This document shows positions 1 to 63,349 of a DNA stretch of 64,000 bases, in pieces. The notes below the pieces were generated by a model. The model was not told where the DNA came from and made no database searches. It saw nothing but the letters and a program-made list of their open reading frames with translations. The translations under genes were made by a program, and so were the position numbers. How positions within the stretch are numbered: the first letter of the stretch is position 1; every line of letters starts with the position of its first letter. The DNA comes from an uncultured bacterium (GTDB lineage: Bacteria; Eisenbacteria; RBG-16-71-46; CAZAMP01): assembly GCA_964486455.1 (NCBI GenBank), contig CAZAMP010000025.1, positions 26 to 64,025 of the forward strand. Reading direction: 5' to 3'.

Positions 1-539
1 CCAGCGAACCGAAGGACTTCGCCTTCAAGGAGCAGACAAGTACCGAAGGGTTCAACGACAACAACAACGATCTCGCAACGGGCGCCAGGATGAGCTTTGC
101 CCGGGGATCGTTCTCACTCGGCGGCTCCTACCTGCGCGGTGCCTACGATTCCGCGTCGCGCTTCGACTTTCATGCGTGGGGTGTCGATGCGGCCGTAACC
201 GTCATGGGGGTCCGCCTACGATCCGAGTACCTCCAGCGAAGAACGGACGTGGCCGGCGCGAATGGCGGGCGCATGGATATGTGGAAGAAAGGGTTCTATG
301 CGCAGGCCGAGCTACCGCTCGGAGCCCGTTTCATGGGCGTCGCGCGGCTCGACGGCCTCCTGCGAGAGGGCCCGGCCGTCGGCGTACTCGACGAATCGTC
401 CGGCATCGTCCGCGCCACTCTGGGATTGAACATCATGCCGACTGTGGATGTCGGCATTCGAACCGCCGTCGAGCATTGGCGCTTCACCGATTTCACGGAT
501 GTCAATGTTCTCCGCCTCGGGACCGTCATCACTTACTAG
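1..539 (+). CDS. Outer-membrane beta-barrel/porin-like protein, 5' truncated by window edge
   Basis: Frame is open from position 3 (SEPKDFAFKEQ...DNNNDLATGARMSF); amphipathic beta-strands; C-terminal aromatic residue (LRLGTVITY). Confidence 0.65.
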   Translation, partial: SEPKDFAFKEQTSTEGFNDNNNDLATGARMSFARGSFSLGGSYLRGAYDSASRFDFHAWGVDAAVTVMGVRLRSEYLQRRTDVAGANGGRMDMWKKGFYAQAELPLGARFMGVARLDGLLREGPAVGVLDESSGIVRATLGLNIMPTVDVGIRTAVEHWRFTDFTDVNVLRLGTVITY

Positions 540-575
540 ATGCGCTTCCCCCGGCGGACTGGGAGAACCGAACGC

Positions 576-1700
576 ATGCGTCGTGTCGTCAACAGCCTCA
601 TCCTTCTTGCCGCGGGCGCGCTTCTGGCTGTATCGACCGTGGAAACGGCATGGGGACAGGATGACGGCGACGAGGTCAAGATGTTCGATACCGATCTCGG
701 ACCCGCGTCGATCGATGTGAGCGGCTATCCGCCCGAGTTCCAGTCGCTATACCCACTCTTCGCTCGGAAGTGCAGCAAGTGTCACACGCTCGCGAGGCCA
801 ATCAACTCGTCCAAGCTCGGCGACGAGTGGCTCGCGTATGTGAGCCGCATGAGCCGGAAGCCGGGATCCGGAATCAGCCCGCGCGACGCGGAACGCGTCT
901 TCGAGTTTCTCGCGTATGACTCTCAGGCGCGCCAACGAAGCGCCACGGCCGTCGATCCCGAGCTGCTGCCGTTTCTCGAGGTGAGCCGCGAGCTCAGCGG
1001 TGCCAGACGATTTCCGGCCGCGAACAAGAACATCCCGACCGAGGCCGAAGAGCTTCGCCTGCGCGTACGAGGCGATCGTCGGCTGAATCTGAACACGCTC
1101 TTCGAGAGCGGTTCGGGACAGAAGCTCGTCCGCTGGTCACAGCGTGATCCGGGGCGCGGCGAGCTGGTGCTCACGTCCGTGGATACGCGCGACGGAGACG
1201 CGCCCGATCCACCGGCCCGCTCCCCCGCCGACAGCGCGGTCCGGCTGGCCGCATCCGAAGCGATCGGAACCGAAAGCGACACGGAAGAGCAGGTCGAGCT
1301 GATCCTGGACTGGTTGGATGAAGAGATCGAGCGGACCTACCAGCCGGGATCGGCAACGGCGGCGGGCGTGCTCGAAATACGCGAAGGCGATGCCACGGAG
1401 TTCACCCGTCTCTTTTGCGAGATGGCGAGGAGCGCAGGGCTCCCGGCCCGCTCCCGGATCGGCCTCGTCGCGCGACGAACGTCGTTTCACTTTCATGCGT
1501 GGGCGGAGGTGTGGCTTGACGGGTGGGTGCCGATCGACCCCTATCTCGGTCAATTCCCTGCCGACATCACGCACGTTCATCTCAAGGCGGCGGACGGGGA
1601 CGCTATCGACGAATGGAATCCCGACCGCTACCCCGCACTGGATCGCCTGAAGATCGAGGCGATCATCGAGGACACGTCCGACACCGTGGAGGGAGGGTAG
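576..1700 (+). CDS. Secreted monoheme cytochrome c fused to a transglutaminase-like domain lacking the catalytic Cys
   Basis: RBS GGAGAA at 562 then ATG 576; signal peptide; CSKCH with a downstream RM; C-terminal GDATEF..AGLPAR..HAWAEVW..GWVPIDP. Confidence 0.8.
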   Translation: MRRVVNSLILLAAGALLAVSTVETAWGQDDGDEVKMFDTDLGPASIDVSGYPPEFQSLYPLFARKCSKCHTLARPINSSKLGDEWLAYVSRMSRKPGSGISPRDAERVFEFLAYDSQARQRSATAVDPELLPFLEVSRELSGARRFPAANKNIPTEAEELRLRVRGDRRLNLNTLFESGSGQKLVRWSQRDPGRGELVLTSVDTRDGDAPDPPARSPADSAVRLAASEAIGTESDTEEQVELILDWLDEEIERTYQPGSATAAGVLEIREGDATEFTRLFCEMARSAGLPARSRIGLVARRTSFHFHAWAEVWLDGWVPIDPYLGQFPADITHVHLKAADGDAIDEWNPDRYPALDRLKIEAIIEDTSDTVEGG

Positions 1701-1704
1701 AGCC

Positions 1705-3291
1705 GTGAACGGTTCGGCCGAGCCCACCCCCGCTTGCAGACTCGCCTGTCCCGTCGACAAAGACATACCCGGTTTCCTACGCGCGATCGCGCTGGGCGAC
1801 TCCACAGAAGCGTGGCGGATCGCCTACCGAGACACCCTGTTTCCAGGAGTTCTGGGCCGGATCTGTCCGAGACCATGCGAGCCCGCCTGTGTGCTGAGCC
1901 GACACGACGATCCGGTGCCCGTCTGTAGGCTCAAGCGCTGGGTCAGTGAACGCGAGGGAACGCTTCACGGCCCGCCGACCGCCGCGCGAGGCGATGGCCC
2001 CTCGATCGCGGTTATGGGCGCTGGACCGGCCGGTCTCGCGACCGCCCACGATCTCGCCGTACGGGGAGCGAACGTCACCCTCTTCGACCGGGCGGACGAA
2101 CCCGGCGGTCTCATGCTCTCCTGCATCCCAACCTTCCGCCTTCCGGAGGAAACCGTCCGGGAGGACGTCGAGAGGATCTTGGCGCTCGGCATTCGCTTCG
2201 AAGCCGGGCGCGAGTTTCGCTCGACCGACTCGCTGACGACGCTACACGACGAGGGCTTCGACGCGGTCGTCCTGGCGTTGGGTGCCGGCGACGACCACGT
2301 GCCGGAGTTTCCCGGCTGGAGGTCCCCCCCCGCGTGCTGGACCTCGATCGAGTTTCTGGAAGCTTTTCGGCGAGGCGAGGCGGAGCTCGCGGGCCCGAAA
2401 GTCCTCGTCATCGGCGGCGGACTCTCCGCCATCGATGCGGCCCGGGCGGCGCTCCGCACCGGCGGTCGCGAGATTCGAATTCTCTACCGGCGGGACAGGT
2501 CGGAGATGCCCGCCGGCGAATCGGACATCGACGAGACGACGTCGGAGGGCATCACGCTTCACACGCGCGTCACCCCGGTCGAGCTTGCGTGGGACGGAGA
2601 TCGTCTGCGAGGCGCGATCATGGTCCGCACGCGTCCGGGCGATGCGATCGCGGATGGAGAGCAGCGCCCGACCGCCGTGGCGGGTACCGAAGCGCTTCAC
2701 GCCGCCGACGCCGTGATCAGCGCGATCGGCCAGCGGCATCCGCTCCACCGGGCGCGCGACAGCGAGCAAGCGTCATGGTTGTTCAGTTGCGGCGACTTCA
2801 CGACCGGGCCCGGCACGGTCGTCGGCGCCATCGCGTCGGGTCGAAGGACCGCGGCGGCGATCTGGAAATCGCTCAGCGCGGCGGGACGATGGAGCACGCC
2901 GGAAGAAGCCTTTACGCAACATCTTGCGGATGTCCGTCCGGGGAGCGGTGCGCCCTCGACTCCGTCGACCTGGGTATGCGATCGGTCGATCCTTCACCTG
3001 TCCCGCCGGTCCGCAATGTCGGAGGCCGCCCGCTGCGTGGGATGCGATCAAGTTCTTTCCCTGAGCCGAGATCGCTGTATTCTCTGTGGCCAGTGCGCGG
3101 AACGTTGCCTCGAGGCCTGTCTCTCCTGGGAGGCGGACGTCGGGACCGGTTCGTGGCGGCTCGAGATCGACGACTCCATCTGCGCGAGATGCGGTGACTG
3201 CGTGGACGTCTGCCCCTCGGGCGCGCTCAGCTGGAAGCCATGGACGAGAGAGAACAAAACGTGGGTGGCACGGAAGAACAACGTGGCCTGA
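1705..3291 (+). CDS. GltD/SudA/DsrL-like NAD(P)H:flavin Fe-S oxidoreductase with C-terminal ferredoxin domain
   Basis: CRLACP, GRICPRPCEPAC, GAGPAG, GGGLSAID, YRRDRSEMPA, RCVGC, CILCGQCAERC, CARCGDCVDVCP; no signal peptide. Confidence 0.85.
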   Translation: MNGSAEPTPACRLACPVDKDIPGFLRAIALGDSTEAWRIAYRDTLFPGVLGRICPRPCEPACVLSRHDDPVPVCRLKRWVSEREGTLHGPPTAARGDGPSIAVMGAGPAGLATAHDLAVRGANVTLFDRADEPGGLMLSCIPTFRLPEETVREDVERILALGIRFEAGREFRSTDSLTTLHDEGFDAVVLALGAGDDHVPEFPGWRSPPACWTSIEFLEAFRRGEAELAGPKVLVIGGGLSAIDAARAALRTGGREIRILYRRDRSEMPAGESDIDETTSEGITLHTRVTPVELAWDGDRLRGAIMVRTRPGDAIADGEQRPTAVAGTEALHAADAVISAIGQRHPLHRARDSEQASWLFSCGDFTTGPGTVVGAIASGRRTAAAIWKSLSAAGRWSTPEEAFTQHLADVRPGSGAPSTPSTWVCDRSILHLSRRSAMSEAARCVGCDQVLSLSRDRCILCGQCAERCLEACLSWEADVGTGSWRLEIDDSICARCGDCVDVCPSGALSWKPWTRENKTWVARKNNVA

Positions 3292-3758
3292 GCCGAAAGC
3301 TCTTCTTCGAGCGGCTTGGCTGGCTGGGGATCACGATCCTCGGGCTGGCCGGCATCCCCGGGCTCATCCGTTTCCTGAAACCGCGCGTGACGGGAACGTC
3401 CAAGGGCGCGTTCGATGCCGGATCGATCGATGACCTGAGATCGGTGATCGTCAGCACGCGCTGGCTCAAGCGCCATCGGCTGTGGGTGGTCCATGACCGG
3501 GACACGCTCTTCGCCGTGGAGGCCCGCTGCACGCACCTCGGCTGTACACCGCGATGGGACTCCACCGCCGGCGTATTCAACTGCCCGTGCCACGGCAGCC
3601 TCTTCACCCCACAGGGCGTCCCGCTCAACGGTCCGGCCGTCGAGCCGCTCTACCGGTTCGCGATCTGGTCGGACGGCGATCGCGTGGTCATCGATCCGTC
3701 AAAGAAAGCCACTCTGGAAGAGGCCGAGCTGAAGGATGACTATGTCATTCATCTCTAG
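3240..3758 (+). CDS. petC: Rieske [2Fe-2S] subunit
   Basis: CTHLGC and CPCHGS boxes; SRKLF Tat-like motif followed by a TM helix. The start overlaps the upstream gene and is uncertain. Confidence 0.9.
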   Translation: MDEREQNVGGTEEQRGLSRKLFFERLGWLGITILGLAGIPGLIRFLKPRVTGTSKGAFDAGSIDDLRSVIVSTRWLKRHRLWVVHDRDTLFAVEARCTHLGCTPRWDSTAGVFNCPCHGSLFTPQGVPLNGPAVEPLYRFAIWSDGDRVVIDPSKKATLEEAELKDDYVIHL

Positions 3759-3823
3759 TGCCCCGGTTGAGAGATTCGGCTCGATCGGGGCACAAGTGAC
3801 CACCGGCGAAAGGGATAGACCCA

Positions 3824-4612
3824 GTGCCCCATGACACGAAGAAGCGATTCGCCGGGCTTCGCAACAGCCAGTTCTGGCGGTCGCTCTTTCGCACGGGCGT
3901 CCCGGACGATCAAAAGAGCCGCGTGGCCGTCATGCTCTCCACCGTCTTCCTGCACCTACATCCACCCCGTATCCCGGCGGCAGCGATCGTGTTCCGGAGG
4001 ACATTCGGCCTAGGAGGTCTATCGTTTCTGCTCTTCATCATCCTGACGGTCACCGGACTTCTCCTGATGCTCTACTACCGGCCCACGGCGGAGATGGCCT
4101 ACAACGACATTCAAGAGATCGACGCCACCATTCCGTTCGGGCGGCTCATGCGCAACCTGCATCGCTGGTCGGCGCACGCGATGGTGCTGGCCGTAATCGG
4201 TCACATGGCGCGCGTGTTCTATGCCGGTGCGTATCGCCCGCCGCGCGAGTTTAACTGGGTAGTCGGTGTCCTTCTGCTCGTCCTGACGCTGTTCCTGAGC
4301 TTTACGGGCTACCTGCTGCCGTGGGACCAGCTGGCCTACTGGGCAATCACCGTGGGGACGAACATGGCCGGGGCCACGCCGATACTCGGGCACGCGGGGC
4401 CGTTCGCTATCGTGGGGCCGGACAACGACGTCCGCTTTTTGCTCCTGGGCGACACGACGGTGAGCGAGGCGGCGCTGCTCCGTTTCTATGTGCTTCACTG
4501 TGTGATCCTCCCGTTCGTCGTGGCCGTTCTGTCGGCGATTCACTTCTATCGTGTGCGGAAGGACGGCGGGGTATTGGCGCGCGAGAAAGAGGGTCACGAT
4601 GAGCAAACGTGA
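3824..4612 (+). CDS. petB: Cytochrome b6-type (split cytochrome b, N-terminal part)
   Basis: [43 protein letters not shown]-x14-H. Confidence 0.92.
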
Positions 4613-5351
4613 CCCCAGGAGTCTCGGCCAAGTGAAGTCGTCAGCTTCCATGCCGATGCGCGAGACACCGAAGCGGTTGGTGACGGTCTGGCCGCACCTT
4701 CTTTACCCGGAGCTCATCTACGCCATCGTCTGGATCGCGATCCTGATCGTGGCGTCGCTCGTGTGGAACGCGCCACTCGAGGAACCGGCCAACCCGACCC
4801 ACACACCGAACCCGGCGAAGGCGCCATGGTACTTCGTGGGTCTGCAGGAACTCCTCGTCTACTTCGACCCGTGGATGGCCGGCGTCGTCATTCCGCTCGT
4901 CATCATCTACGGGCTCTGCGCGATGCCGTACATCGATCCGTCGCGCCGCGGCGGCGGCGTCTACAGCTTCCGGGAGCGGCGGCGCGCATTCATCATCTTC
5001 ACGGCGGGTTTGGCGGGCTGGTTCATCCTGATCGCCATCGGAAGCTGGTTCCGCGGGCCGGGTTGGGCATGGGTCTGGCCGTGGAAAGAGACATTGGGGA
5101 GCGCGCCCGTCGAGGTGTCGACTTCGTTGCCGAACACGGTGGGAATCCCGCTTCTCACGCTCTACTTCATCGGCCTTGGAGCCTGGATCGTTCACCGAAC
5201 CGGACGATGGGAACGCTTCACGCCCGGGCGCCGATGGAATTTCGCGCTCCTCACGCTCGCGATGACGGGCGTCGGTCTCAAAATCGTCATGCGGCTCGTG
5301 TTCGGGATCAAGTACGTCGTGAGCTTCCCGAGCATCGGTTTCAACATCTGA
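4599..5351 (+). CDS. petD: Cytochrome b subunit IV-like protein
   Basis: [26 protein letters not shown] (APWY in place of PEWY); several TM helices; ATG 4599 overlaps the end of cytochrome b. Confidence 0.85.
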
Positions 5352-5360
5352 GGCGTCGAT

Positions 5361-7013
5361 ATGCGACTCGGCTTTGCGATATCGGTCGGTCTTCTCCTGG
5401 CGGTGTCGATCTGGGCCGTGTGGGCCGAGCTACGGCCCGAGTGGCGGCGTCACCAGGAGACGCTCTTCGCACGGGCCGAAGAACGTCTCGAAGCCGAACT
5501 CGACCAAGCGCGTCAGACCTTCGAGCGGCCGGAGGTGCAGGATCGACTTGCGACCATCGACCGACGGCTGTCGAAAATCGCGGCAGACACGACCGAGACG
5601 GCGACGCGGCGCACCGAGATCCAGAGCCGCCTGGCCGAGATTCGGACCGAGACGGCACGCCTTCGATCGCGTCTTCGTCACGAGGAGACACGCCTCTGGA
5701 CACCGGAGGTCGCGCGCCCCTATCGGGCCGCGCTGTCGCTCCTCGCCGCCGCTCAAAACGCCTACAGCGATGCGAGCGGCAGATGGCCACGGGACGCGGC
5801 GGAGGTTGACAGCCTCAAGGCGCGGGTCGATTCACTGGCGGAACTGTCGGGGCGATTCGTCCTCCGGATGGAGACGTTTCGACAAGAGCTGGAGCACGCG
5901 CGCGAAGAGGAGCGCGCGCTTCGGCTGCAGGCCGCGCTCATCACGGCCGAGGAAGAGAGCCTCCGGGCGGAGAAGCGCCGCATCCTTCGCCCCGTACGTT
6001 CGCTGGAGGTATCGCTCGATCGCGTGCGGAACCACCGGCCGGGAATTCGTGAGATCGCGTCTCCCGACGGCAATGAGAAAGCCCGATGCCCGACCTGTCA
6101 CGGCGATCTCATCCATCCGCCGGGCGCGCATCCCGTTCTCGACACGGGCGGCGATCTCGTCGATGTCGTGTGCACAGCCTGCCATCGCGGCGATGGAAGG
6201 GCACTCGACACCGAGCGCGCGCACCGCGGCCTGCTCACCGCGGCGGGTCAGGGCGCCGGACCGTTCTCACTTCAGGGTCGCATCGATCGTCTCGCGGATG
6301 CCGACCCGGACGTCCGCCGCGAAACGCTCGACGAGCTTCGCTTGATCACCGGGATCGATCCCGGCGCGGTCATCACGCCCGGGGGTAACGCAGACAGCGC
6401 GCGGGCGGCGGCGTGGCTCGACTGGTGGACCGACGCGCGCCGCTATTTCGAGACGGGCGAGGGATCCACCGAGGGGGACGACCCGGACCGGCTCATTGCG
6501 ATGGGACTCGATCCCTGGCTCGTCTCCACCGAGGGGCGACCGCTTCAGTACGTCGGCTCACAGGAGTGTTTGAGCTGCCACGAAACGCTTCACCGGGAGC
6601 ATTGTGAACGGTGGGTGGCGACGAAATCCAGCAGCCTGGAGCGACTCAAGGATGAACCCGACCCCGAAAAGTGCTATCCCTGCCACGCAACCGGATACGA
6701 GCCGGAGACCGGCACGTTCGCCGAGCCGGGTGTCACGTGCGAGGCCTGTCATGGACCGGGAGAGCGGTACAGCGAGATGATGTTCGTCGGGAAAGAGCTG
6801 ACCGGTCGTGGCGATACCGCTAGGGGAAACGCGCTCCTGGACCTATCGTCCCGCCTCTCGCGCGACGCCATCAGCCGGCGGCTCGTGGAAGGCGATTACG
6901 GTCCGATCAATGTGTGTGTGGAATGTCATCACCCGCGGAGGCACGCGGAAGGAGGACCCGGGTTCCTCGAGCGTGTCGGCGCGGACGCGGATTCGATCGA
7001 GGAGGGCGAGTGA
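5361..7013 (+). CDS. Membrane-anchored hexaheme cytochrome c with long coiled coil
   Basis: N-terminal TM helix, about 200 aa of heptad-rich sequence, six CxxCH (CPTCH, CTACH, CLSCH, CYPCH, CEACH, CVECH). Confidence 0.85.
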   Translation: MRLGFAISVGLLLAVSIWAVWAELRPEWRRHQETLFARAEERLEAELDQARQTFERPEVQDRLATIDRRLSKIAADTTETATRRTEIQSRLAEIRTETARLRSRLRHEETRLWTPEVARPYRAALSLLAAAQNAYSDASGRWPRDAAEVDSLKARVDSLAELSGRFVLRMETFRQELEHAREEERALRLQAALITAEEESLRAEKRRILRPVRSLEVSLDRVRNHRPGIREIASPDGNEKARCPTCHGDLIHPPGAHPVLDTGGDLVDVVCTACHRGDGRALDTERAHRGLLTAAGQGAGPFSLQGRIDRLADADPDVRRETLDELRLITGIDPGAVITPGGNADSARAAAWLDWWTDARRYFETGEGSTEGDDPDRLIAMGLDPWLVSTEGRPLQYVGSQECLSCHETLHREHCERWVATKSSSLERLKDEPDPEKCYPCHATGYEPETGTFAEPGVTCEACHGPGERYSEMMFVGKELTGRGDTARGNALLDLSSRLSRDAISRRLVEGDYGPINVCVECHHPRRHAEGGPGFLERVGADADSIEEGE

Positions 7014-7936
7014 GACAGGCGTCTAGCATCTGCACGTGCGGCATCCTGTTGCTCGTTCTGATGGGCTGCCCGGGAGAGGAGCCGGAGCTTCCCGACCCGG
7101 CGGCACAGACATCAAGCGCCGTAGATCGGGTAACGCCGCCGATGATTCAAGGTGACAGCGAGGCGTTTCGCGAGATGGAGCTTCCGCCTAGCCAGTTCGT
7201 CCGCGTGATTCCCACCGGCGACGCGCACGATCCGGAATCCGCGCCGGCCTTCCGAAGTCTCTGCCTGAACTGCCACGCGGTGAGCCAGACGTCGTTCGCC
7301 ACGGAAGCATGGGTGCAGAGTCTTCACGCGCGGGCCGGTGTGACGTGCGCGGCGTGCCACGGCTCCCACGAGGGAACGTTTGCTCCCCAGCCAACCGCGG
7401 AGGATTGCCGCAGATGTCACTCCCGACAGGTTGAAGCGTTTCTCGCGTCGGGCCACGGACCCGAGCGGGCCCCGGGCATGCGTTGCGTCTCGTGTCATGA
7501 GGTTCACGCCACCGATCGGAAACTGGCGATGAGCACGACGCTATGTACCGGTTGTCATATCGAATCGGAGCACGTGACCGGTTACGCGGAATCGCGGATG
7601 GGTGTGATCTTCCTTCAGGAAGGTTATGACGAGAACGGAGACCTGAGGGCTCCCGATTGTGTCTATTGCCACATGCCGCCCGATCCGATCATGGACGAAA
7701 CCGGCGACTTTCGAACCGACCGGGTGACGCTACACGACCCGGCCATCACGGTCGAAAAACACGCCAAAGACCCGAGTCGCCTATCGGACGCGGCAATCGA
7801 GTTCCTGCTGCCGCAGTGCGTGACGTGCCACAGCGAACGCAATGCCCGCCATCGGCTAGAGAACTCCGACACGCTGCTCCGACACTGGACACCGCTCGGA
7901 ATGGATGAGGCGACGCGACGGAAGGCGGCCCAATGA
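7010..7936 (+). CDS. Heptaheme cytochrome c lipoprotein, HAO-like scaffold
   Basis: GTG overlaps the upstream TGA; lipobox LVLMGC; seven CxxCH; APDCVYCHM and CVTCHS resemble HAO hemes 7 and 8. Confidence 0.8.
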   Translation: MRQASSICTCGILLLVLMGCPGEEPELPDPAAQTSSAVDRVTPPMIQGDSEAFREMELPPSQFVRVIPTGDAHDPESAPAFRSLCLNCHAVSQTSFATEAWVQSLHARAGVTCAACHGSHEGTFAPQPTAEDCRRCHSRQVEAFLASGHGPERAPGMRCVSCHEVHATDRKLAMSTTLCTGCHIESEHVTGYAESRMGVIFLQEGYDENGDLRAPDCVYCHMPPDPIMDETGDFRTDRVTLHDPAITVEKHAKDPSRLSDAAIEFLLPQCVTCHSERNARHRLENSDTLLRHWTPLGMDEATRRKAAQ

Positions 7937-10158
7937 TCGAACGGCGCGATTTCCTGAAATGCTGTGCCGGATGCGCGGCGGCGATCGCGATCGACGGGCT
8001 GCATCATTCCGGTGTTCGAGCGGCGCCCGTCGACGAGTGGACCCGCAGCGTCTGCGATCTCTGCGGTCTGGGCGAGCCGGTCTTCATCGGAACCCGAGAG
8101 GGCAAACCCGCGGCGGTGAAAGGAATCCCGAATTCGACGATCGGATTCGGCCGACTCTGCCCGCGCTCACAAGCGCTTTGGTCGGGCGGACTCGGCGAGC
8201 AGCGCGCGCTTCAGCCGCTGATCCGGCGCGACCCCGCCACCAAAGGAACGCTGGAAGGCCTCATGCCGGCGACCTGGGACGAAGCGCTCCAGGCCGCGGC
8301 GGGGGGGCTCGCGCGCGTTCGCGAGCGCCTCGGCCCGAGCGGCCTGGCGTTCTTCGCTTCCGACGGGGAAACGAACGAGACGTATCACCTTCTGTCGAAG
8401 GTCGCGCGGGGAGTGTTCGGGACCGATCACGTCGACACGCCCGCCCGCCTCGACGCGTTCGGTGCCGCTGATGCGTGTCTCGACGTGTTCGGCGTTCCCG
8501 GCAACGCCGCATCTCTGGAGGATGTCGATGCGGCATCGCTGATCATCCTCGTCGGCGGCGACGTGGCCGACAGCCACCCGGCGCTCTTCACCCGTGTGCT
8601 GGATGCGCGCCGAAACGGCCGGGCAAACGTCGTCGTGATCGACGCACGGAAGACCCTCGCGGCCGGTGCGGCGGACCTTCACCTGCGCCCGATGCCGGGC
8701 GGCGAGCTAGCAATCGTGAACGCGCTGGCCCGCGCGCTGCTCGCCGAAGCGCGGATCGAGCGGCTTCGGGCCACCGACCGCATTCGGCATCAGATCGAGC
8801 CGCTGGAGGCTCTCTGGAACGAGGCACGCTCGGTGACCACCATCGTGGGGCCGACCGTTCTCGCGTCGCGCTCCGGCTCTGTGTTCGCGCGCGCCGTGGC
8901 ACAGCTCCATCGGGCCACCGGCCAGTGGGGTCGTCCCGGCACCGGATGTCTCTTCCTGCCGAAGGGCGCAAACGCCTCGGGCGTGGTGACGCTCGGAATC
9001 GCCCCCGGTCGGCTCCCGGGCCTGCGATCACTGACCGATGCGGACGAGCGTGAGCGCGTGGCCACCTGGTGGGATGTCGAGCCCGAGCGCATGCCGAGGA
9101 GCGTGGGTCTTCCGGCCACATCTTGGCCGCGCGCGATCGAGAACGGCGACATCGGCGCCATGATCGTGCTCCGGGCCAACCCGGCGGTCGAGATGCCAAA
9201 CGCGTCGGCCTGGCGCGAGGCGCTACGGAGCGCCTTCGTCGTCTCGGCCGCGACGCACTCCCCGAGCGAGACCGGAGTCTACGCGGACGTCGTGCTTCCG
9301 CTCGCGCTGGTCACAGGAGAATCGGACGGAACGATGATGACGCTCGAAAGGCGTTGCCAGCTCCTCGAGCGAGCTGCCGATCCGCCCGGTGAAGCCCGAT
9401 CGGCTTCCGAGGTTCTCGTGGCGCTCGCGCGCGGAAACCTCGACGCAACGTCCCACGACCAGATCCTCGGGCGATACCAGGCCGGGCCGCACGTCGCGTG
9501 GGGCGAGTGGCAAGCGCTGTCTCGGGGCACGGAGTGCGACGCGAGCGGGATCACGATCACGCGCCTTCGCGAGACCCTGGGAATCAAGTGGCCGTGTCCG
9601 GCGGAGAACGACCCCGGGCTGGAACGCATCGGACCCGAATCCGGCATGGCGGTCCGCGCGGCGGCCGACGGCTCGGTGCTGGCACCCCCGACCATCGCCT
9701 CGGCTAAACCGTTCGTGGAGACGTCAGTCCCCACCGACCTGCCCCGCGCCGACGACGTGCGTCCGTTTCTTCTCGTGGGCGGGCCCATTCGTGAGCACTT
9801 CCGATCGCGCATGCGCACCGGGCGCTGTGATGAGCTTCACTACGAAGCCCCCGTCGCACGCATCGAGATGAATCCGGCCGACGGCAGCGAGCTTGGGATT
9901 CCCGACGGAGAATGGGTTACGCTCGAGTCGGAGACCGGTAGACTCACCGCGCGCGTGTGGCTCACCGACCGCTCCCCGCGCCGCATGCTCTTCATACCCG
10001 AACACTTCGGCTTTCTCTCGGACACACAAGGTGGCAGCGATACGGTGAAGGAACCGGAAGGGCTCTTCCAGCTCGTGGCGTCGGACGGGCCTGTCGTCGC
10101 CGTGCAGGCGCGGAAAGCCAGACGGCGCGACATGCGCCGCCGGGGGCTTTCAGGCTAG
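7933..10158 (+). CDS. Tat-exported NapA/NasA-like molybdopterin-family protein with divergent cofactor ligands
   Basis: RRDFLK; CDLCGLGE...LCPRS; ATWDEAL; GTDHVDTPARLD; ADVVLP; C-terminal molydopterin-binding domain (IEMNPADG). Confidence 0.8.
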   Translation: MIERRDFLKCCAGCAAAIAIDGLHHSGVRAAPVDEWTRSVCDLCGLGEPVFIGTREGKPAAVKGIPNSTIGFGRLCPRSQALWSGGLGEQRALQPLIRRDPATKGTLEGLMPATWDEALQAAAGGLARVRERLGPSGLAFFASDGETNETYHLLSKVARGVFGTDHVDTPARLDAFGAADACLDVFGVPGNAASLEDVDAASLIILVGGDVADSHPALFTRVLDARRNGRANVVVIDARKTLAAGAADLHLRPMPGGELAIVNALARALLAEARIERLRATDRIRHQIEPLEALWNEARSVTTIVGPTVLASRSGSVFARAVAQLHRATGQWGRPGTGCLFLPKGANASGVVTLGIAPGRLPGLRSLTDADERERVATWWDVEPERMPRSVGLPATSWPRAIENGDIGAMIVLRANPAVEMPNASAWREALRSAFVVSAATHSPSETGVYADVVLPLALVTGESDGTMMTLERRCQLLERAADPPGEARSASEVLVALARGNLDATSHDQILGRYQAGPHVAWGEWQALSRGTECDASGITITRLRETLGIKWPCPAENDPGLERIGPESGMAVRAAADGSVLAPPTIASAKPFVETSVPTDLPRADDVRPFLLVGGPIREHFRSRMRTGRCDELHYEAPVARIEMNPADGSELGIPDGEWVTLESETGRLTARVWLTDRSPRRMLFIPEHFGFLSDTQGGSDTVKEPEGLFQLVASDGPVVAVQARKARRRDMRRRGLSG

Positions 10159-10402: not shown

Positions 10403-12367
10403 ATGCGTATCCTCTCCGTGCTCCTCTGCCTTTCCGCCGTCATATTCGCCGCATCCGCGGGCGCACGCACGTGGCACGTTCCCGGTAACGCCCCCACGAT
10501 CCAGGCGGGGATCGATTCCGCGTCGGCCGGCGACACCGTGCTCGTCGCGTGCGGGACGTACTACGAGCATGACATCGAAACGAAGTCACAGGTGTGTCTA
10601 CGAAGCGAGACGGGGCAGGCGGATTGCGTGACGATCGATGCTCAGCAGCTGGGTAGTGTTCTTCGGTCCACGTACTACTCGGGGCCAACGACCTTAGAAG
10701 GACTGACCCTCACAGGCGGCGATGCGAATATCGGCGGCGGGTTCTATTGCACGAGCTATGAGATCACCGTCTCGAATTGCGTATTCACCGATAACTCGGC
10801 GTGGGGCGGGGGCGGTATGTGGTCCACGGGCGGAGTTACGTTCATCGACTGCGTCTTCTCCGACAACACCGCCTCGATCGGTGGTGGAATCGCCAACCAA
10901 GAGGCCACGCTTTCACTCAACGGGTGCCTCTTCACGAACAACTCGGCCGCACGAGGCGGCGGTGTCTATCTGTGGGGATTTACATGGCCCAGCATCAATC
11001 ACTGTTCCTTCGTGGGAAACTCGGCGGCGACAAGCGGCGGTGGCGTCTTCGGCGAGTTCGAGGTCCAGGGCTCATTCACCCACTGCACGTTCTTCGCCAA
11101 CTCCTCACCGACAGGCGGCGGCATCATGCTGGAAGGCAGCTCGTTGCTTCACCTCGACAACACGATCATCGCGTTCTGTCCGGAGGGTGAGGCCGTGGGA
11201 TTCGGCGAGAACTACAGAACCGACGTTACTTTCGCGTGCTCCGACATCTTCGGCAACGTCGGCGGTGACTGGGTAGGCGGCGGTTTGCCGGGACAATACG
11301 GCGTCGACGGCAACATCTCCGCGGATCCCCAGTTCTGCGACGCTGCCGGGGGCGATCTGTATCTGTCATCGACCTCTCCCTGTCTCTACGATTCGTGTGG
11401 TCAGATCGGGGCCTTCGTACAGGGATGCCTGGGCGAGGCACCTCGGATAATGAGTATCCTCGACGTCGATAACGATCAGGGCCGGGCCGTGCGTCTCTCG
11501 TGGCAGCGCTCACGCTACGACGCCGGCGGAGATACTGTCGAGGTCACCGGCTACGGGATCTACCGGCGACAGAATCAGGCCGGGCGGCCGGGGAATGGGC
11601 GTGCGGAGGGCTGGGACTATATCGACACCGCCCCCGCCCGCGGCGATTCGCTCTACCAGTTCGTCGCTCCGACGCTCTGCGACTCCACCGCCAGCGGTAT
11701 CTGTTGGTCGGCCTTCTTCGTGAGCGCGATGACGCCCGATCCGCTCGTCTACTTCGACTCGCCACCCGATAGCGGCTACTCGATCGACAACCTCGAACCG
11801 GGTCCCCCCCAGAACCTGAGATGGGAAACCGAGGCCATCCTCGCGTGGGATGAGGCGGAGGAAGAAGACTTCGACTACTTCTCGGTCTACGGCTCGGCGA
11901 GTGCGGAGTTCGGCGAGGACGCGGAGCTGATTCGGTACACCGTAGGAACGAACATGGACGTGTCGGAAACGATCCATCTGTTCTATCACGTGACGGCCAC
12001 CGACATGAACGGGAACGAGGGAGGTGCCGCGACCGTCGCGACCACCGTGGCCGTACCGGACGCGCTTGTTCCACGCGTGATCGCCCTCGGGCCGTGTCGG
12101 CCCAATCCGTTCAGCGCATCGACCACCCTCTCGCTCGATCTGCCGGAACCAGCGACTGTGACGTGTCGGGTCTTCGACGTCAGCGGCCGTCTCGTCCGCA
12201 CGGTGGCCGACGACCGAAGACCGGCAGGGCAGTATCGCCTGGTTTGGGACGGTGCCGATAGCCGAGGTTCGATCGTACCGGGTGTCTATTTCGTTCGGGT
12301 GGAGGCAGACCGGTTCACTGCCGTCCGAAGGGTCATTCTTCTGAATGGCACTGTGAGACGCCCGTAG
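10403..12367 (+). CDS. Secreted right-handed beta-helix protein with C-terminal FlgD-like domain
   Basis: Signal peptide; TIQAGID; repeated FxxNSA/GGG; NISADPQFC; PNPF...FDVSGRLVRT...WDG...GVYFVR. Confidence 0.85.
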   Translation: MRILSVLLCLSAVIFAASAGARTWHVPGNAPTIQAGIDSASAGDTVLVACGTYYEHDIETKSQVCLRSETGQADCVTIDAQQLGSVLRSTYYSGPTTLEGLTLTGGDANIGGGFYCTSYEITVSNCVFTDNSAWGGGGMWSTGGVTFIDCVFSDNTASIGGGIANQEATLSLNGCLFTNNSAARGGGVYLWGFTWPSINHCSFVGNSAATSGGGVFGEFEVQGSFTHCTFFANSSPTGGGIMLEGSSLLHLDNTIIAFCPEGEAVGFGENYRTDVTFACSDIFGNVGGDWVGGGLPGQYGVDGNISADPQFCDAAGGDLYLSSTSPCLYDSCGQIGAFVQGCLGEAPRIMSILDVDNDQGRAVRLSWQRSRYDAGGDTVEVTGYGIYRRQNQAGRPGNGRAEGWDYIDTAPARGDSLYQFVAPTLCDSTASGICWSAFFVSAMTPDPLVYFDSPPDSGYSIDNLEPGPPQNLRWETEAILAWDEAEEEDFDYFSVYGSASAEFGEDAELIRYTVGTNMDVSETIHLFYHVTATDMNGNEGGAATVATTVAVPDALVPRVIALGPCRPNPFSASTTLSLDLPEPATVTCRVFDVSGRLVRTVADDRRPAGQYRLVWDGADSRGSIVPGVYFVRVEADRFTAVRRVILLNGTVRRP

Positions 12368-12395: not shown

Positions 12396-14615
12396 CTAGC
12401 GGCCGCTCAGAACGGTGAAGCGGCCGCTTGCGATCGGACCCGCTTCGGGCACAACCTGCACGAAGTAGATCCCGGCGGACAGCCGCGTGCCATCCCAGCG
12501 GATCGTCACGGGTCCCACGCCGATCGACTCGGTGAAGGCGAGTACCCTTCGGCCGTTCACGTCGAAGATCTCGAATCGCGCTCGCCCCTGCGTTGCGCTC
12601 TGATAGCTGAATTCAAGCCGGCCGCCGGTTGGGTTTGGTGACACCCGAACGAGCTGCTTGTGTGACGAATCGATGAGATCTCCGGGACCCTGGCCGTCCA
12701 CCGAGTTGGTGTCGTCTCCACGACCCAAGAGAATGACGCTGCTCTCACCGCAGACGAGAAACCCATCGCCCGTCGACGCGACATCGCGGGGTCCATCCGC
12801 CCACGGGTACTCGACCTGCTCCCAGGTTAGTCCACCGTCTGCAGTCACCCAGACCCATTCATCGAACGGATTCGCGGTAACGCCGTGAAGCGAGTCGTAG
12901 AAATCAAGATACCAACCTTCATCCGGAATGGACTCCGTCCAGAGATCGCCGCCGTTCGTCGTACGGTAGATGCCGTTGCGCCCGACAACTACGGCCGTTG
13001 TCTCGCTCATCCAGTGCATATCGCGCACGTGCGAGGGATCCGGCAACCCCGTCGTGGAAACGGATGTCCAGAGCGCTCCACCGTCGACCGTCTTCCAGAT
13101 TCGCGGACTCCCCGATGAACTTCCTCCACCGGCGAAACCGACGTTCGTGTCGAGAAAACAGATCGCCTCCACGTCGTCGGCGCCGGGAATTCCCGTTCCC
13201 CGCTCTTCCCAGGTTTCCCCGCCGTCGGTGGAGTAGAAGATGAAGTGCTCGAGCACCTCGTCCCCCGTCGTCACCACGAAGCATGCGGTTTCTTCGGGAA
13301 CTGCAATGGCCTTGGCGTAGCCCATGTAGCCCGGTGCCAACTCATGGGAGATCCAGCTCTCTCCTCCGTCGGTCGTTCGTACGATGTTGCTGTGGCCCGG
13401 CGTCATGTACCCACCGGCCAAACCGAAGTCGTCGTTCAGGAATTCGATGCAGTAGACCAAGTTGACACCAGGCGTTGCCGCGGGGATCTCCCATGTCTCC
13501 CCACCATCGTCGCTCCTGAGCCAGCTCTGATCGCGCCCGCCGGCGAACGCCTTTCCACTCGGCAAAAGCGTCATCGCACGGAGATAGCTCCGTTCCCCGT
13601 CCTCAGGGCTGCGCGTGAAGTTCGTCCAACTCTGCCCCATGTCCACGCTTCGCAGAAGATCTCCATCGGAACTGCATACGACGAGCGCTCCGTCGGAAAG
13701 CATGTGGATGTCCGTGTAGCCCACGGTTCTAATCCTCCGATAGAGAATGTCCCAGTCCGGTCCATCGTTCTGCGTTTCCCATATCTCGGCGCCCTCGAGA
13801 TGCGTAATGACGAAGCGGCGCGACGCATCGATGAAGAGTGCTTCCTCTTGGTAGATGGGGCTCTCGAAGAAGTCGCCGTGCTTTTCGAACCAGGAGGCAC
13901 CACCATCCGTGGTCCGATACGTGGTGAAGTGTTCGAGCAGCCACCCGTTCTGTGAATCGAGGAATTGTATGTCGGTGAATGCCCCCGACTCCTGCACATC
14001 CGGGATCGGCTGCCACGTCTGGCCGCCGTCATCGGTCTGTCGCGCCACGTGCGAACCGACGACATATCCGTGCAGTTCATCCCACCAGAACTGGTCGTAG
14101 ATTTCTCTGTCAAACGGTGGCGGAAGAAGCGTCCACGTGAGTCCGCCGTCAATGGAGTGCAGAACGGCTCCGTGCCGCCCCACGACAGAGAGGGTGCCGC
14201 CCGGAATCTCCTCGATGTTGAAGAGTGGTCCCGTTGATGGGTTGGACACGGCGGACCAGCTCACACCACCGTCGTCGGACCGGAAGATCCCGGGGGGATC
14301 TCCGACGGCCAGCAGCTGTCCGGGACCCATGGAACGCACATCCCGGAGACCGGTTGTGAATGCGGGGAAGGAGGTCAAATCGATCCAGGTCTGACCGCCG
14401 TCATCGGTCCGCAGGACCGTCCCCTTGTCTCCGACGGCGTAGCCGGTGAGCGCATCCTCGAATGCCATGCCGTAGAGGCCGTTTCCTTGTGGTGTCGGGT
14501 TGGTCCACTCGAATGAGTAGTCGTTGGCAGGGAGACGTTGTGTCCACACGAAACACGTGGCGAGGGCGACGACCTGAGTACCGTAACGGAAACGATGGCA
14601 GCTCAATTCAGACAT
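12396..14615 (-). CDS. Secreted YCF48/BNR beta-propeller protein with T9SS/FlgD-like C-terminal domain
   Basis: More than 10 Asp-box repeats (TxDGGxTW); VSPNP...IFDVNGR...AGIYFVQV tail. Confidence 0.85.
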   Translation of the reverse strand: MSELSCHRFRYGTQVVALATCFVWTQRLPANDYSFEWTNPTPQGNGLYGMAFEDALTGYAVGDKGTVLRTDDGGQTWIDLTSFPAFTTGLRDVRSMGPGQLLAVGDPPGIFRSDDGGVSWSAVSNPSTGPLFNIEEIPGGTLSVVGRHGAVLHSIDGGLTWTLLPPPFDREIYDQFWWDELHGYVVGSHVARQTDDGGQTWQPIPDVQESGAFTDIQFLDSQNGWLLEHFTTYRTTDGGASWFEKHGDFFESPIYQEEALFIDASRRFVITHLEGAEIWETQNDGPDWDILYRRIRTVGYTDIHMLSDGALVVCSSDGDLLRSVDMGQSWTNFTRSPEDGERSYLRAMTLLPSGKAFAGGRDQSWLRSDDGGETWEIPAATPGVNLVYCIEFLNDDFGLAGGYMTPGHSNIVRTTDGGESWISHELAPGYMGYAKAIAVPEETACFVVTTGDEVLEHFIFYSTDGGETWEERGTGIPGADDVEAICFLDTNVGFAGGGSSSGSPRIWKTVDGGALWTSVSTTGLPDPSHVRDMHWMSETTAVVVGRNGIYRTTNGGDLWTESIPDEGWYLDFYDSLHGVTANPFDEWVWVTADGGLTWEQVEYPWADGPRDVASTGDGFLVCGESSVILLGRGDDTNSVDGQGPGDLIDSSHKQLVRVSPNPTGGRLEFSYQSATQGRARFEIFDVNGRRVLAFTESIGVGPVTIRWDGTRLSAGIYFVQVVPEAGPIASGRFTVLSGR

Positions 14616-61971: not shown

Positions 61972-63349
61972 TTAGTCGAATCGCGCCTTGATGGCGCTCC
62001 AGCTCGTCTCAATGACCAGCGTCGTCCCGCAGCTCACGCCGTGGTTGCCGATCACGCCGCACTCGCCGGCTGTGACGCAGGGGGAATCGCTCTGGAGCGA
62101 CCAGTTCTCGTCGTCGTCCGGGGTGGAGGAGCAAAACTCGGGATCGGCGTTGATGTTACCGTCGACTCCCTCCTGCCCCGCGACGCAGTCGACGTAGTCG
62201 CCGCCGGCGTTCCCGAACACGTCACAGCATGAAAGCGTGGCCGAGCTGAGCTCGTTGCAGACGATGGCCTCGCCGGCCGTGCTGAACGCGATGATGACAT
62301 CCTCGACCGAAAGCTCGGAACTGCTGTTGGCCATGATCGCCGCCCCGGCGCCGTCGGTTGAGTTGCCCGTGAAGACGCACGAGTAGACATCGAAGTATGA
62401 CGCGTTGCTTAGAAGTGCGCCTCCCCCATCTGTGGCACTGTTCCGCGAGAACGTCAATCCCATGAGGTCCCTGTTCGAGCGCTCCAGGGCAATCGCGCCG
62501 CCCCAGGCCGCGGAGTTCGCGATGAAATCGCTGTTGTCGATGGCCGCCCCGCTCGATTCGAACGCGTAGATGGCACCACCGAGGACAGTGGCACTGTTTT
62601 CCCTGAAGGTGCTGTTACCCCCATCGAAGTACGAGTCGTAGACGTCGATCGCGCCACCGCTTCCTCCCGCCGTATTCGTGATGAAATCCGTGCTCTCGAA
62701 GCTGAGATGCGAATCGGCCGCGGAGATGGCTCCCCCCCCCTCCCCCGGCTACGTTCCCTTCGAAGCGACTGGCACCGACATCGGAGGTTGCCAGGCCCGA
62801 CAGGGCCAGCGCGCCGCCGTCCCCGGCGGTCTCATTGTCCGAGAACGTGCAGAAGCTCAAGCCCACCGAAGAGTACTGCTTGCACAGGATCGCCCCGCCG
62901 TCCTGAACGCCGTAATTGTCCGAGAAGACGCAGGTCCCGAAGCTCGCCTGGGAGTCGTTTTCCAGGAGGACGGCGCCCCCAAGATCCGCATAGCCGTTCT
63001 GGATCGTGATCCGATAGACCCACGAGCCATTCACTCCACCCGCATCGAAAACGAATGCGCGATAGTGTGCCTTCGCAGTCCCTTCGCAGTCGATCGTACA
63101 GAGCGCCGGATCACCATTCAGTGATTCGATCTTGATCGGAAACGCGGGCATGTCGATATCCCGATTGCCGTCGCCTCGAAACGTCCCATCGCTGAGCTGA
63201 ATGACGTCGTCCTCCACCGCCGCGTTGACGGCCGCCTGAATGGTGGGGAAATCGCCCGTGCCGTCCGGATCGACGAGATAGGTTGCCGATTGGACAATTG
63301 AAAGCTGGAGAACACACAGTGCTACTAGAAAAAGCGGAGTGGAGCGCAT
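61972..63349 (-). pseudogene. Secreted beta-helix protein with SWSAIKARF tail, frameshifted at a G9 tract
   Basis: G9 at 62732-40; G8 would join the two ORFs in frame (AGGGGGAISAADS...). Confidence 0.8.

Follow-up and report, generated by a model that had tools for sequence, protein, structure and literature searches.

A conserved ten-gene operon of uncultured marine bacteria with an anammox-type Rieske/cytochrome b core, a predicted haem-porin and an unusual molybdopterin-family protein

Rieske/cytochrome b complexes encoded together with a flavoprotein have been described in the anaerobic ammonium-oxidising (anammox) bacterium Kuenenia stuttgartiensis (Kartal et al., as cited in Hauser et al. 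2025, PMC12954380). According to the available part of the latter paper, the Rieske proteins Kustd1480 and Kuste4569 have measured midpoint potentials of +335 mV and +303 mV, the models of subunit IV have five helices, and Kustd1485 has long helices that wrap around the complex. A cluster of Geobacter sulfurreducens with Rieske and cytochrome b genes includes ExtI, which is called a porin, no mention of a haem motif in it being found in the part of the paper at hand (Jahan et al. 2018, PMC5877670), while Cyc2 is defined, in the available text, by an N-terminal cytochrome domain with the motif PxFAR[Q/K][T/Y] five residues before CxxCH and PxL four residues after it (Keffer et al. 2021, PMC8406198). 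In Campylobacter, Nap is reported, in the portion of the source available, to be functionally coupled to a Rieske/cytochrome b complex, with a different gene set (PMC6195509). Here we analyse a locus that has likenesses to these systems, in a stretch of 64,000 nucleotides from the genome of an uncultured bacterium (the window; positions 26-64025 of contig C25 of genome G000). Positions 3-10158 of the window are the last nine genes of a ten-gene operon.

We propose, with our confidence evenly divided between belief and doubt, that this operon encodes a single redox system running from the cytoplasmic membrane to the outer membrane. The composition of the operon, its conservation and the pairing of an outer-membrane barrel with the cytochrome encoded next to it are supported by computation, and from these we infer the direction of flow, the substrate, bifurcation and the physical association of all parts. 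In the proposed system menaquinol would be oxidised at the outer quinol site, and one electron would pass through a probably high-potential Rieske cluster to a six-haem and a seven-haem cytochrome. This haem chain would deliver it to a molybdoenzyme exported by the twin-arginine translocation (Tat) pathway, at whose active site, new in having Asp in place of Cys, a high-potential periplasmic substrate, most likely an oxyanion, would be reduced. The same haem chain would also join an outer-membrane module, in which a 16-strand haem-porin would be plugged from the periplasmic side by the cytochrome c domain of the protein g1, and to which a lipoprotein with Ig-like and cytochrome c domains would belong, allowing electrons to be exchanged with an extracellular partner. 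The second electron would cross the membrane through the b haems and then either be recycled at the inner quinone site (necessarily so in a variant that lacks the flavoprotein), or pass along an iron-sulphur chain to flavin adenine dinucleotide (FAD) and reduce NAD(P)+, as proposed for anammox.

The operon and its conservation

The nine genes in the window, here g0 to g8, lie on the plus strand and are tightly packed, as judged from open reading frames (ORFs), Pfam and NCBIfam, with junctions ranging from a 52-nucleotide overlap to a 65-nucleotide gap and with overlaps of 4 nucleotides at both g6/g7 and g7/g8. An initial annotation of this DNA, made from its letters alone, had counted nine close or overlapping genes with 14 CxxCH motifs; our recount gave exactly 14 (one in g1, six in g6 and seven in g7), and Pfam confirmed each family named there. 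The window (G000:C25:26-64025) begins 25 bases into its contig, so the gene set is truncated at its 5′ end, and g0 (3-539), which is open at that end, encodes the C-terminal 178 residues of an outer-membrane 16-strand porin of about 369 residues with one covalent-haem motif. When the genome was searched with upstream genes taken from a relative, the missing 5′ part was found on a short contig (C100, 2647 bases; locus L016), which carries, in order, the end of groEL, a strong terminator-like hairpin, a promoter-like site (10/12 matches), the gene of a 456-residue lipoprotein and the N-terminal half of the barrel gene (L016 2033-2647; 205 residues with a further CxxCH), assigned from its overlap with the window start. 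The orthologue of the lipoprotein in locus L007 has two Big_7 Ig-like domains followed by a C-terminal PSCyt1 cytochrome c domain. Since this contig completes the barrel and adds the lipoprotein gene, the operon has ten genes; it probably starts with the lipoprotein gene, and it ends with g8. The assembly break itself lies inside the barrel gene, where the 3′ end of C100 and positions 1-45 of the window share about 14 codons, in which one or two residues differ. An intact 369-residue form of the barrel is represented by the protein P0278.

Seven GTDB species representatives encode a molybdoenzyme of the g8 type. In the six of these loci with enough sequence (L007, L008 and L012-L015) all ten genes are collinear with those described here, at protein identities of about 38-73%; the seventh locus, L009, is a 6.8-kb contig with g6 to g8. 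By sequence comparison, such retention of the same ten genes in the same order in six other genomes is more than chance, and the synteny search that the initial annotation had suggested as a check thus returned a co-conserved gene set, collinear in 6/6 loci. The representatives are titled Candidatus Eisenbacteria (two), uncultured Gemmatimonadota (two) or simply 'bacterium' (three), in agreement with the earlier statement that the set apparently lies outside the anammox lineage. The g8 relatives number 23 at 48-60% identity, after which the next match falls to 31%, and within the phylum 3 of 201 sampled genomes have the g8 type (G000, G050 and G099), a fourth and fragmented genome, G192, having the barrel. 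The genomes with the operon come from marine habitats, and the bacteria are uncultured. The flavoprotein gene is present in seven complete clusters and missing from two metagenome contigs, L032 (8402-16212) and L033 (126-9365), which carry an otherwise complete cluster of the same close clade; in L033 the end of g1, at 2391, is about 30 nucleotides away from the start of the Rieske gene, at 2422. The gene that follows g8 varies, being a β-helix/FlgD_ig gene here and a KDPG aldolase gene in L007 and L008. Taken together, the promoter-like site, the terminator-like hairpin after groEL, the abutting genes, the collinearity and the varying gene after g8 support both the unit and its boundaries.

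The inner-membrane core and the periplasmic redox proteins

On sequence grounds, the core of the operon is a b6-type Rieske/cytochrome b complex built like anammox Kustd1480-1485. The Rieske [2Fe-2S] subunit g3 (3240-3758; Pfam Rieske, 40.3 bits) has one N-terminal transmembrane helix (residues 28-46), and among solved structures it matched 9rk3 with 102 bits, 9rk4 with 63 bits and the best b6f Rieske protein with 57 bits. The first two entries are Kustd1480 and Kuste4569, respectively, as given in the available part of Hauser et al. (2025, PMC12954380). The Ser/Phe pair that follows the second cluster-binding box is the same in g3 and Kustd1480, and from its likeness to Kustd1480 the g3 cluster is probably of high potential, which would favour a chain that ends in a strongly oxidising step.

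The product of g4 (3824-4612) is a four-helix, b6-type cytochrome b (Pfam Cytochrome_B, 148.9 bits), which scored 147 bits against solved cytochrome b6 and about 101 bits against bc1 cytochrome b. It is followed by g5 (4599-5351, for which ATG 4599 was chosen as the start over GTG 4551), a subunit IV-like membrane protein with five predicted transmembrane helices, in line with five hydropathy segments and a Cytochrom_B_C match of 26.2 bits in Pfam. Against the NCBIfam models of the Geobacter proteins, g4 reached 272.2 bits for ExtP (cut-off 290) and g5 reached 52.6 bits for ExtQ (cut-off 150). In 7/7 sequences g4 has an N-terminal His-x-His-Pro motif, close to residue 44, which is a candidate ligand for the extra haem b proposed at the dimer interface of the anammox complexes. 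At the position of the Cys required for haem cN, the g4 of the window has Gly (codon GGC), for which a real loss and a sequencing error are both possible. The genome G000 has a second cytochrome b on contig C11; in G201, G204 and G205 the cytochrome b of the cluster is the sole Cytochrome_B (PF00033) match, and the cluster may encode the only Rieske/cytochrome b complex of these three genomes.

The flavoprotein g2 (1705-3291) is predicted to be cytoplasmic, with no transmembrane helix and no signal peptide by hydropathy. It is a GltD/NfnB-like iron-sulphur protein with FAD- and NAD(P)H-binding parts (Pfam Pyr_redox_2, 67.6 bits), an N-terminal Fer4_20 domain (57.1 bits) and a C-terminal ferredoxin domain for two [4Fe-4S] clusters (Fer4_7, 34.2 bits), and it scored 308.7 bits against the NCBIfam model PRK12771 (cut-off 516). 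Its best solved relatives are 9bov and 9bp5 (E 3e-69), the NfnABC structure that, in the available part of their paper, served Hauser et al. to place the clusters in Kuste4570 (PMC12954380). The analogy to the anammox complexes drawn in the initial annotation is therefore strengthened, with Kustd1480 as the closest solved relative of g3, five helices in g5, and g2 nearest to the very entry used for Kuste4570; for g4, g5 and g6 the likeness is to the published description of the Kuenenia complexes. We also considered whether g2 is specifically anammox-like and rejected this, as about 16 orthologues at 41-57% identity are followed by generic GltD-like proteins at 36% or less, none of them named as anammox, although names are sparse in such records and make weak evidence.

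In the place that cytochrome f would occupy, g6 (5361-7013) encodes a membrane-anchored hexahaem cytochrome c. Its N-terminal transmembrane helix (residues 1-24) is followed by a long coiled coil between the anchor and the haem domain (residues ~28-230 match SMC-type coiled-coil models in NCBIfam), and the haem domain has six CxxCH motifs and a Cytochrome_C554 match of 37 bits. The orthologue of g6 in L007 (11685-13518) is split across two overlapping frames, while that in L008 is in a single frame. The next gene, g7 (7010-7936; GTG 7010, which is preceded by the Shine-Dalgarno-like GAGGAGG, was chosen as the start over GTG 6914), encodes a heptahaem cytochrome c of the lipoprotein type, with a Cys after its hydrophobic N-terminal stretch, seven CxxCH motifs, a Cytochrom_c3_2 match of 41.7 bits and partial matches to the DmsE and NrfH models. 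Searches of solved structures gave no close relative of either cytochrome. Together they would place thirteen haems in the periplasm.

The stop codon of g7 and the start of g8 (7933-10158) overlap by 4 nucleotides. In one other protein record, P0004 (1117 residues), a g7-like heptahaem part and a g8-like part stand in a single gene call with the Tat motif in mid-protein, which may be a true fusion or else an artefact of read-through or of a frameshift. The product of g8 is a molybdopterin-family protein of the Nap/Nas/Fdh lineage that is predicted to be exported by Tat, and the initial annotation was right to call it a Tat-dependent member of that family: the N-terminal twin-arginine motif is invariant (15/15), and Pfam gives Molybdopterin with 141.3 bits, Molydop_binding with 65.7 bits and Molybdop_Fe4S4 with 24.7 bits, both cofactor domains passing their cut-offs. 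Its best solved match is the NapA of D. desulfuricans (2jim, E 2e-71), in which we take C140 to be the molybdenum ligand and R354 to be the active-site Arg. In the alignment Asp174 of g8 falls at C140, Glu48 at C20 (the third cluster Cys) and a Thr at R354. These changes run through the whole clade: in 16/16 sequences Asp takes the ligand position and the third cluster Cys is replaced by Glu or Asp, and the residues at the position of the Arg are non-basic. The scores of g8 also lie far under the family cut-offs (180.2 against 930.55 bits for NAPA, 251.5 against 1100 for NasC and 262 against 666.25 for Fdh-alpha), whereas ordinary neighbouring representatives reach 430-765 bits. We therefore rejected NapA, NasC and formate dehydrogenase as identities for g8, and the label 'NapA-like' given to it earlier is misleading. 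Still, the clade has 48 invariant columns in common with four ordinary Nas/Nap-like proteins, and this, with both cofactor domains above their cut-offs, suggests that g8 still binds the molybdopterin cofactor.

A profile search of 1.84 billion representatives returned about six clusters of the g8 type above 500 bits, so that this branch, with its Asp at the metal and its acidic cluster site, is rare in the Nap/Nas/Fdh lineage and hints at a substrate or chemistry new to it. The search also returned proteins of intermediate character: P0341 shares both changes, the Asp-type ligand and the acidic cluster residue; P0339 combines an acidic cluster residue with the Cys ligand and the Arg, both of which it retains; and P0342 has Gly at the ligand position.

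The same features bear on an explanation in which g8 is the input and not the output of the haem chain, oxidising a periplasmic substrate and feeding the 13 haems, from which electrons would reach the haem-porin or terminal oxidases while the Rieske/cytochrome b complex acts as a parallel donor to the haem pool. Arsenite oxidase acts in the oxidising direction, in partnership with a Rieske protein, and has a [3Fe-4S] centre, which the three-Cys cluster site of g8 recalls, and the Asp-ligated enzymes of the Nar type include dehydrogenases; haem-copper oxidases are present in G000 to receive the electrons. Arsenite oxidase itself, however, was only a weak match in our searches, no substrate can be named, and by every score g8 falls in the Nap/Nas/Fdh lineage, which consists mostly of reductases and formate dehydrogenases. 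That g7 and g8 are tightly coupled is uninformative as to direction. We consider this explanation highly improbable, and g8 more readily fits the reductase at the end of the haem chain that we propose.

The haem-porin and its partner cytochrome

The barrel of which g0 is the C-terminal part gave only sub-threshold porin matches in Pfam (SlpA_C 26.2, cut-off 35; Porin_4 18.5, cut-off 27). Its AlphaFold2 model has 16 strands, a predicted local distance difference test (pLDDT) score of 86.1 and a predicted template modelling (pTM) score of 0.82, and the best Foldseek matches of this model are the general and phosphate porins OmpT, OmpF and OprP (E ~1e-13). The CxxCH motif is invariant in all six orthologues and, further out, in 25/25 family members at 31-71% identity, and is followed by a conserved loop with an invariant Met. 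The barrel is thus, to judge from its motif, itself a cytochrome with a predicted covalent haem. In the model CxxCH stands at the end of strand 3, and a third loop of 45 residues carries the conserved stretch; by standard porin topology this end of strand 3 would be the extracellular one, and the haem would occupy the outer half of the lumen. The earlier label of a porin or outer-membrane barrel thus holds for the 16-strand fold and has to be changed in one respect, the invariant CxxCH that the barrel carries.

Weak relatives of the barrel within the same phylum were also tried as haem-porins and rejected, since none of eight loci (L023-L030) has an ORF of at least 330 residues with CxxCH. Four of these loci were read and encode ordinary porins that have the L3-loop region in common with g0, so that the haem site seems to have been acquired within a family of porins.

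The gene g1 (540-1700) directly follows the barrel gene and encodes a protein with a signal peptide, a monohaem cytochrome c domain (one CxxCH and an invariant Met), a linker and a transglutaminase-like domain. The initial annotation had described a fusion of cytochrome c and transglutaminase; both domains of the fusion were found (Transglut_core 74.2 bits in Pfam, one CxxCH), while the second is probably non-catalytic. Although the copy in the window retains the Cys and His of the Cys-His-Asp triad of transglutaminases, the catalytic Cys is kept in 3/7 orthologues and replaced by Val in 4/7, and the His position varies too, so we rejected an active transglutaminase at the level of the family.

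We modelled residues 31-369 of the barrel together with the cytochrome c domain of g1 and two haems, and obtained an interface score (ipSAE, the interaction prediction score from aligned errors) of 0.76, with 0.75-0.80 over three runs that share at least 59% of contacts and have a partner pLDDT of at least 71; the best of three controls scored 0.00. In calibration this mark was reached by 58/80 solved complexes and by 2/110 mismatched pairs, counts that are only a rough guide for barrel and g1, where own alignments and a riding haem were used. In the model g1 touches the barrel at both of its termini and at its periplasmic turns, and one invariant g1 loop extends into the lumen, as far as the third loop. 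The computation thus supports g1 as the partner of the barrel, with its cytochrome c domain predicted to dock on the periplasmic face. With a barrel that is a cytochrome in its own right (CxxCH in 25/25) and a model that docks g1 onto it, the envelope-spanning arrangement put forward in the initial annotation has gained support.

The pairing extends beyond the operon. At least 475 metagenomic relatives of the barrel exist, of which 80 were fetched, and 47/76 loci of the distant family have a gene for a g1-like cytochrome c directly before the barrel gene, in the same orientation (47/63 when at least 450 nucleotides of upstream sequence are available). P0332 (585 residues; record title Planctomycetes) is a natural fusion of the two, in which a cytochrome c domain of the g1 type forms the N-terminal part and the haem-porin follows without a signal peptide of its own. 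Look-alike clusters of the barrel in the Atlas are mostly from Myxococcota. In three distant loci (L078 6480-11110, L064 6199-11137 and L087 6833-11101) the haem-porin gene is preceded, in this order, by those of a Ser/Thr kinase, a protein of ~330-360 residues (with a weak DUF7482 match in L078 and L064) and a small monohaem cytochrome c, which suggests an outer-membrane redox-sensing module that feeds the kinase.

These wider relatives raise the possibility that the operon joins two separate functions on a shared transcript, with the Rieske/cytochrome b complex and g6 to g8 as an ordinary quinol:acceptor pathway and the lipoprotein, haem-porin and g1 as an independent redox sensor or channel. 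In the wider family the cytochrome c/haem-porin pair occurs without a Rieske/cytochrome b gene, the adjoining kinase in L078, L064 and L087 fits sensing, and ExtI of Geobacter, itself a porin in a Rieske/cytochrome b cluster, is interpreted as a solute channel in the available part of its description (PMC5877670). However, the presence and order of the ten genes have been kept in six genomes over 38-73% protein identity, the outer-membrane genes are flanked by the promoter region on one side and the flavoprotein gene on the other, at gaps of 0-4 nucleotides, and the operon contains no kinase or regulator. We regard two separate functions as clearly unlikely, and a single system in which the haem-porin and g1 are a plausible gate to the outside as the better account of the operon.

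Electron flow and comparison with known systems

The genome G000, which is 97% complete, has haem-copper oxidases and gave no RuBisCO match; for this reason we rank a heterotrophic host with outward or periplasmic electron flow first, and uptake of electrons from Fe(II) second. In the latter case the haem-porin would act like Cyc2 and oxidise extracellular Fe(II) or another donor, the periplasmic haems would pass the electrons downhill to a molybdoenzyme reducing, for example, a nitrate-like oxyanion, and a fraction would be driven uphill through a reversed Rieske/cytochrome b complex to quinone or, by way of the flavoprotein, directly to NAD(P)+. A monohaem 16-strand porin is indeed the architecture of the Fe(II) oxidase Cyc2, known iron oxidisers run a bc1 complex in reverse as the uphill branch to NADH, Cyc2-like genes have been reported, in the part of the literature available, from metagenome-assembled genomes of Eisenbacteria and Gemmatimonadota with nitrate suggested as the acceptor, and the cytochrome b of the cluster is the only PF00033 match in G201, G204 and G205. 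On the other hand the barrel fails both Cyc2 motifs and has its haem motif inside the barrel instead of in an N-terminal domain, reverse flow is hard to motivate in a genome without a RuBisCO match, and g8 lacks the residues that define Nap-type nitrate reductases. We judge electron uptake to be unlikely, though deserving of serious consideration.

A more elaborate version of the same idea is a trans-envelope circuit, in which electrons from an extracellular metal or mineral such as Fe(II) would enter through the haem-in-barrel porin and be split in the periplasm, most of them going to an oxyanion at the Asp-ligated molybdenum site and the rest through the anammox-type Rieske/cytochrome b complex to NAD(P)+. 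This we find quite improbable; if true, heterotrophic marine bacteria would have in it an enzyme system that couples metal oxidation to an oxyanion and supplies reducing power at the same time.

The system that we propose, in which menaquinol is the donor and the haem-porin a site of electron exchange with the outside, also has to be weighed against several of our own observations. With haem-copper oxidases and no RuBisCO in G000, it is not evident why the host should require bifurcation as a source of NAD(P)H, and the absence of the flavoprotein from the otherwise complete clusters L032 and L033 means that coupling to NAD(P) is not essential to the system. The Gly at the haem cN position in the window stands against Cys in the six other loci (L007, L008 and L012-L015) and in L032 and L033. 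Having lost the ligand Cys, the cluster Cys and the Arg, g8 could be a non-catalytic relic, as proteins of the NuoG and QrcB type are. The putative position of the haem in the barrel is read from a model built without haem. Near the distant barrels no Rieske/cytochrome b gene was found at any of 76 loci, within the DNA fetched (12 of them with at least 5 kb on both sides), and the occurrence of the haem-porin pair without such a gene, beside a kinase and a DUF7482 protein, shows that the pair has uses besides respiration. Finally, no RNA runs with the locus are listed, and four DNA runs of a single study carry it.

The surroundings of the operon in the window include two β-helix proteins, encoded at 10403-12367 on the plus strand and 62029-62742 on the minus strand, the first with a C-terminus of the FlgD_ig/Por_Secre_tail type. 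Both are akin to the product of a gene located two genes upstream of the cluster in L007 and L008. The first was considered as an operon member and rejected, its gene being downstream of g8 here, two genes upstream of the cluster in L007 and L008, and elsewhere or absent in the others. On the minus strand at 12396-14615, the translation of a 739-residue ORF has many repeats of the D-G-G-x-T/S-W type and a C-terminal sorting-type tail.

Besides the rare molybdoenzyme branch, the findings matter in two respects. The NAD(P)-linked Rieske/cytochrome b complex, so far discussed as a peculiarity of anammox with an unproven bifurcation, occurs in other, probably heterotrophic lineages, and since the cluster exists both with and without the flavoprotein, nature offers a comparison that makes the mechanism more testable; the variant without it implies that the core works without NAD(P). 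The barrel, in turn, belongs to a large unnamed family of haem-porins, with the haem motif in the barrel and a dedicated periplasmic cytochrome c, that is distinct from Cyc2 by the published motifs and that adds to the candidates for electron gates in the outer membrane, and perhaps to those for redox sensors.

Compared with the systems described so far, the operon is closest in its core to anammox Kustd1480-1485 and Kuste4569-4574, with which it shares, in one cluster, a Rieske protein, a b6-type cytochrome b, a five-helix subunit IV, an anchored multihaem cytochrome with long helices and a GltD/Nfn-like flavoprotein. In both cases a catalytic module lies on the high-potential side, which is an HAO-like octahaem protein in Kuste4574, as given in the available part of the source, and a molybdoenzyme with a heptahaem cytochrome in this operon. 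The operon differs from the anammox complexes in its lineage, in the lack of an anammoxosome, in the added outer-membrane haem-porin module, in the position of the flavoprotein gene (which here precedes the Rieske gene), in the existence of a variant without the flavoprotein, and in the g4 of the window, which lacks the Cys required for haem cN.

The Geobacter sulfurreducens cluster extHIJKLMNOPQS likewise encodes a porin-like protein, with a likeness to phosphate porins, alongside a Rieske protein, a cytochrome b, a small membrane partner and multihaem cytochromes (Jahan et al. 2018), and by this analogy may be taken as a partial precedent for a cluster of porin, Rieske/cytochrome b and multihaem genes. 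As described in the part of that paper at hand (PMC5877670), the ext cluster has neither a flavoprotein nor a molybdoenzyme, both of which are in this operon; conversely, the domains of ExtH (a rhodanese) and ExtKL (a selenoprotein cytochrome) were found in none of the ten operon proteins with Pfam and NCBIfam. With Cyc2, as presented in the available text of Keffer et al. (PMC8406198), the g0 family shares a signal peptide, a single CxxCH and a 16-strand barrel of the OprO/OprP type of ~370-400 residues. However, both motifs of Cyc2 are absent from the alignments of the g0 family, CxxCH stands at the end of strand 3 of the barrel, and the periplasmic cytochrome c is a separate protein of the g1 type; g0 was for these reasons rejected as a Cyc2, and a functional analogy retained. 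With NapA, g8 has in common Tat export, the fold family, the length and the molybdopterin and dinucleotide-binding domains, and it differs in its Asp for the molybdenum-ligand Cys, its Glu or Asp for the third cluster Cys and its Thr for the active-site Arg; genes of the NapB, NapC or NapGH type were not found in this operon.

The initial annotation had not recognised the gene set as described. The core, the link to a porin and the monohaem porin each have precedents, in anammox, ext and Cyc2, respectively, and it is their combination that was not found: in the limited library of literature that was searched, neither this gene set nor a Nap-like enzyme of the Asp type nor the haem-porin family was found described. 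As far as the literature was searched, then, what is new in this operon is the combination of its parts, their occurrence outside anammox, a family of porins with haem in the barrel together with its partner cytochrome, and the molybdoenzyme of the Asp type.

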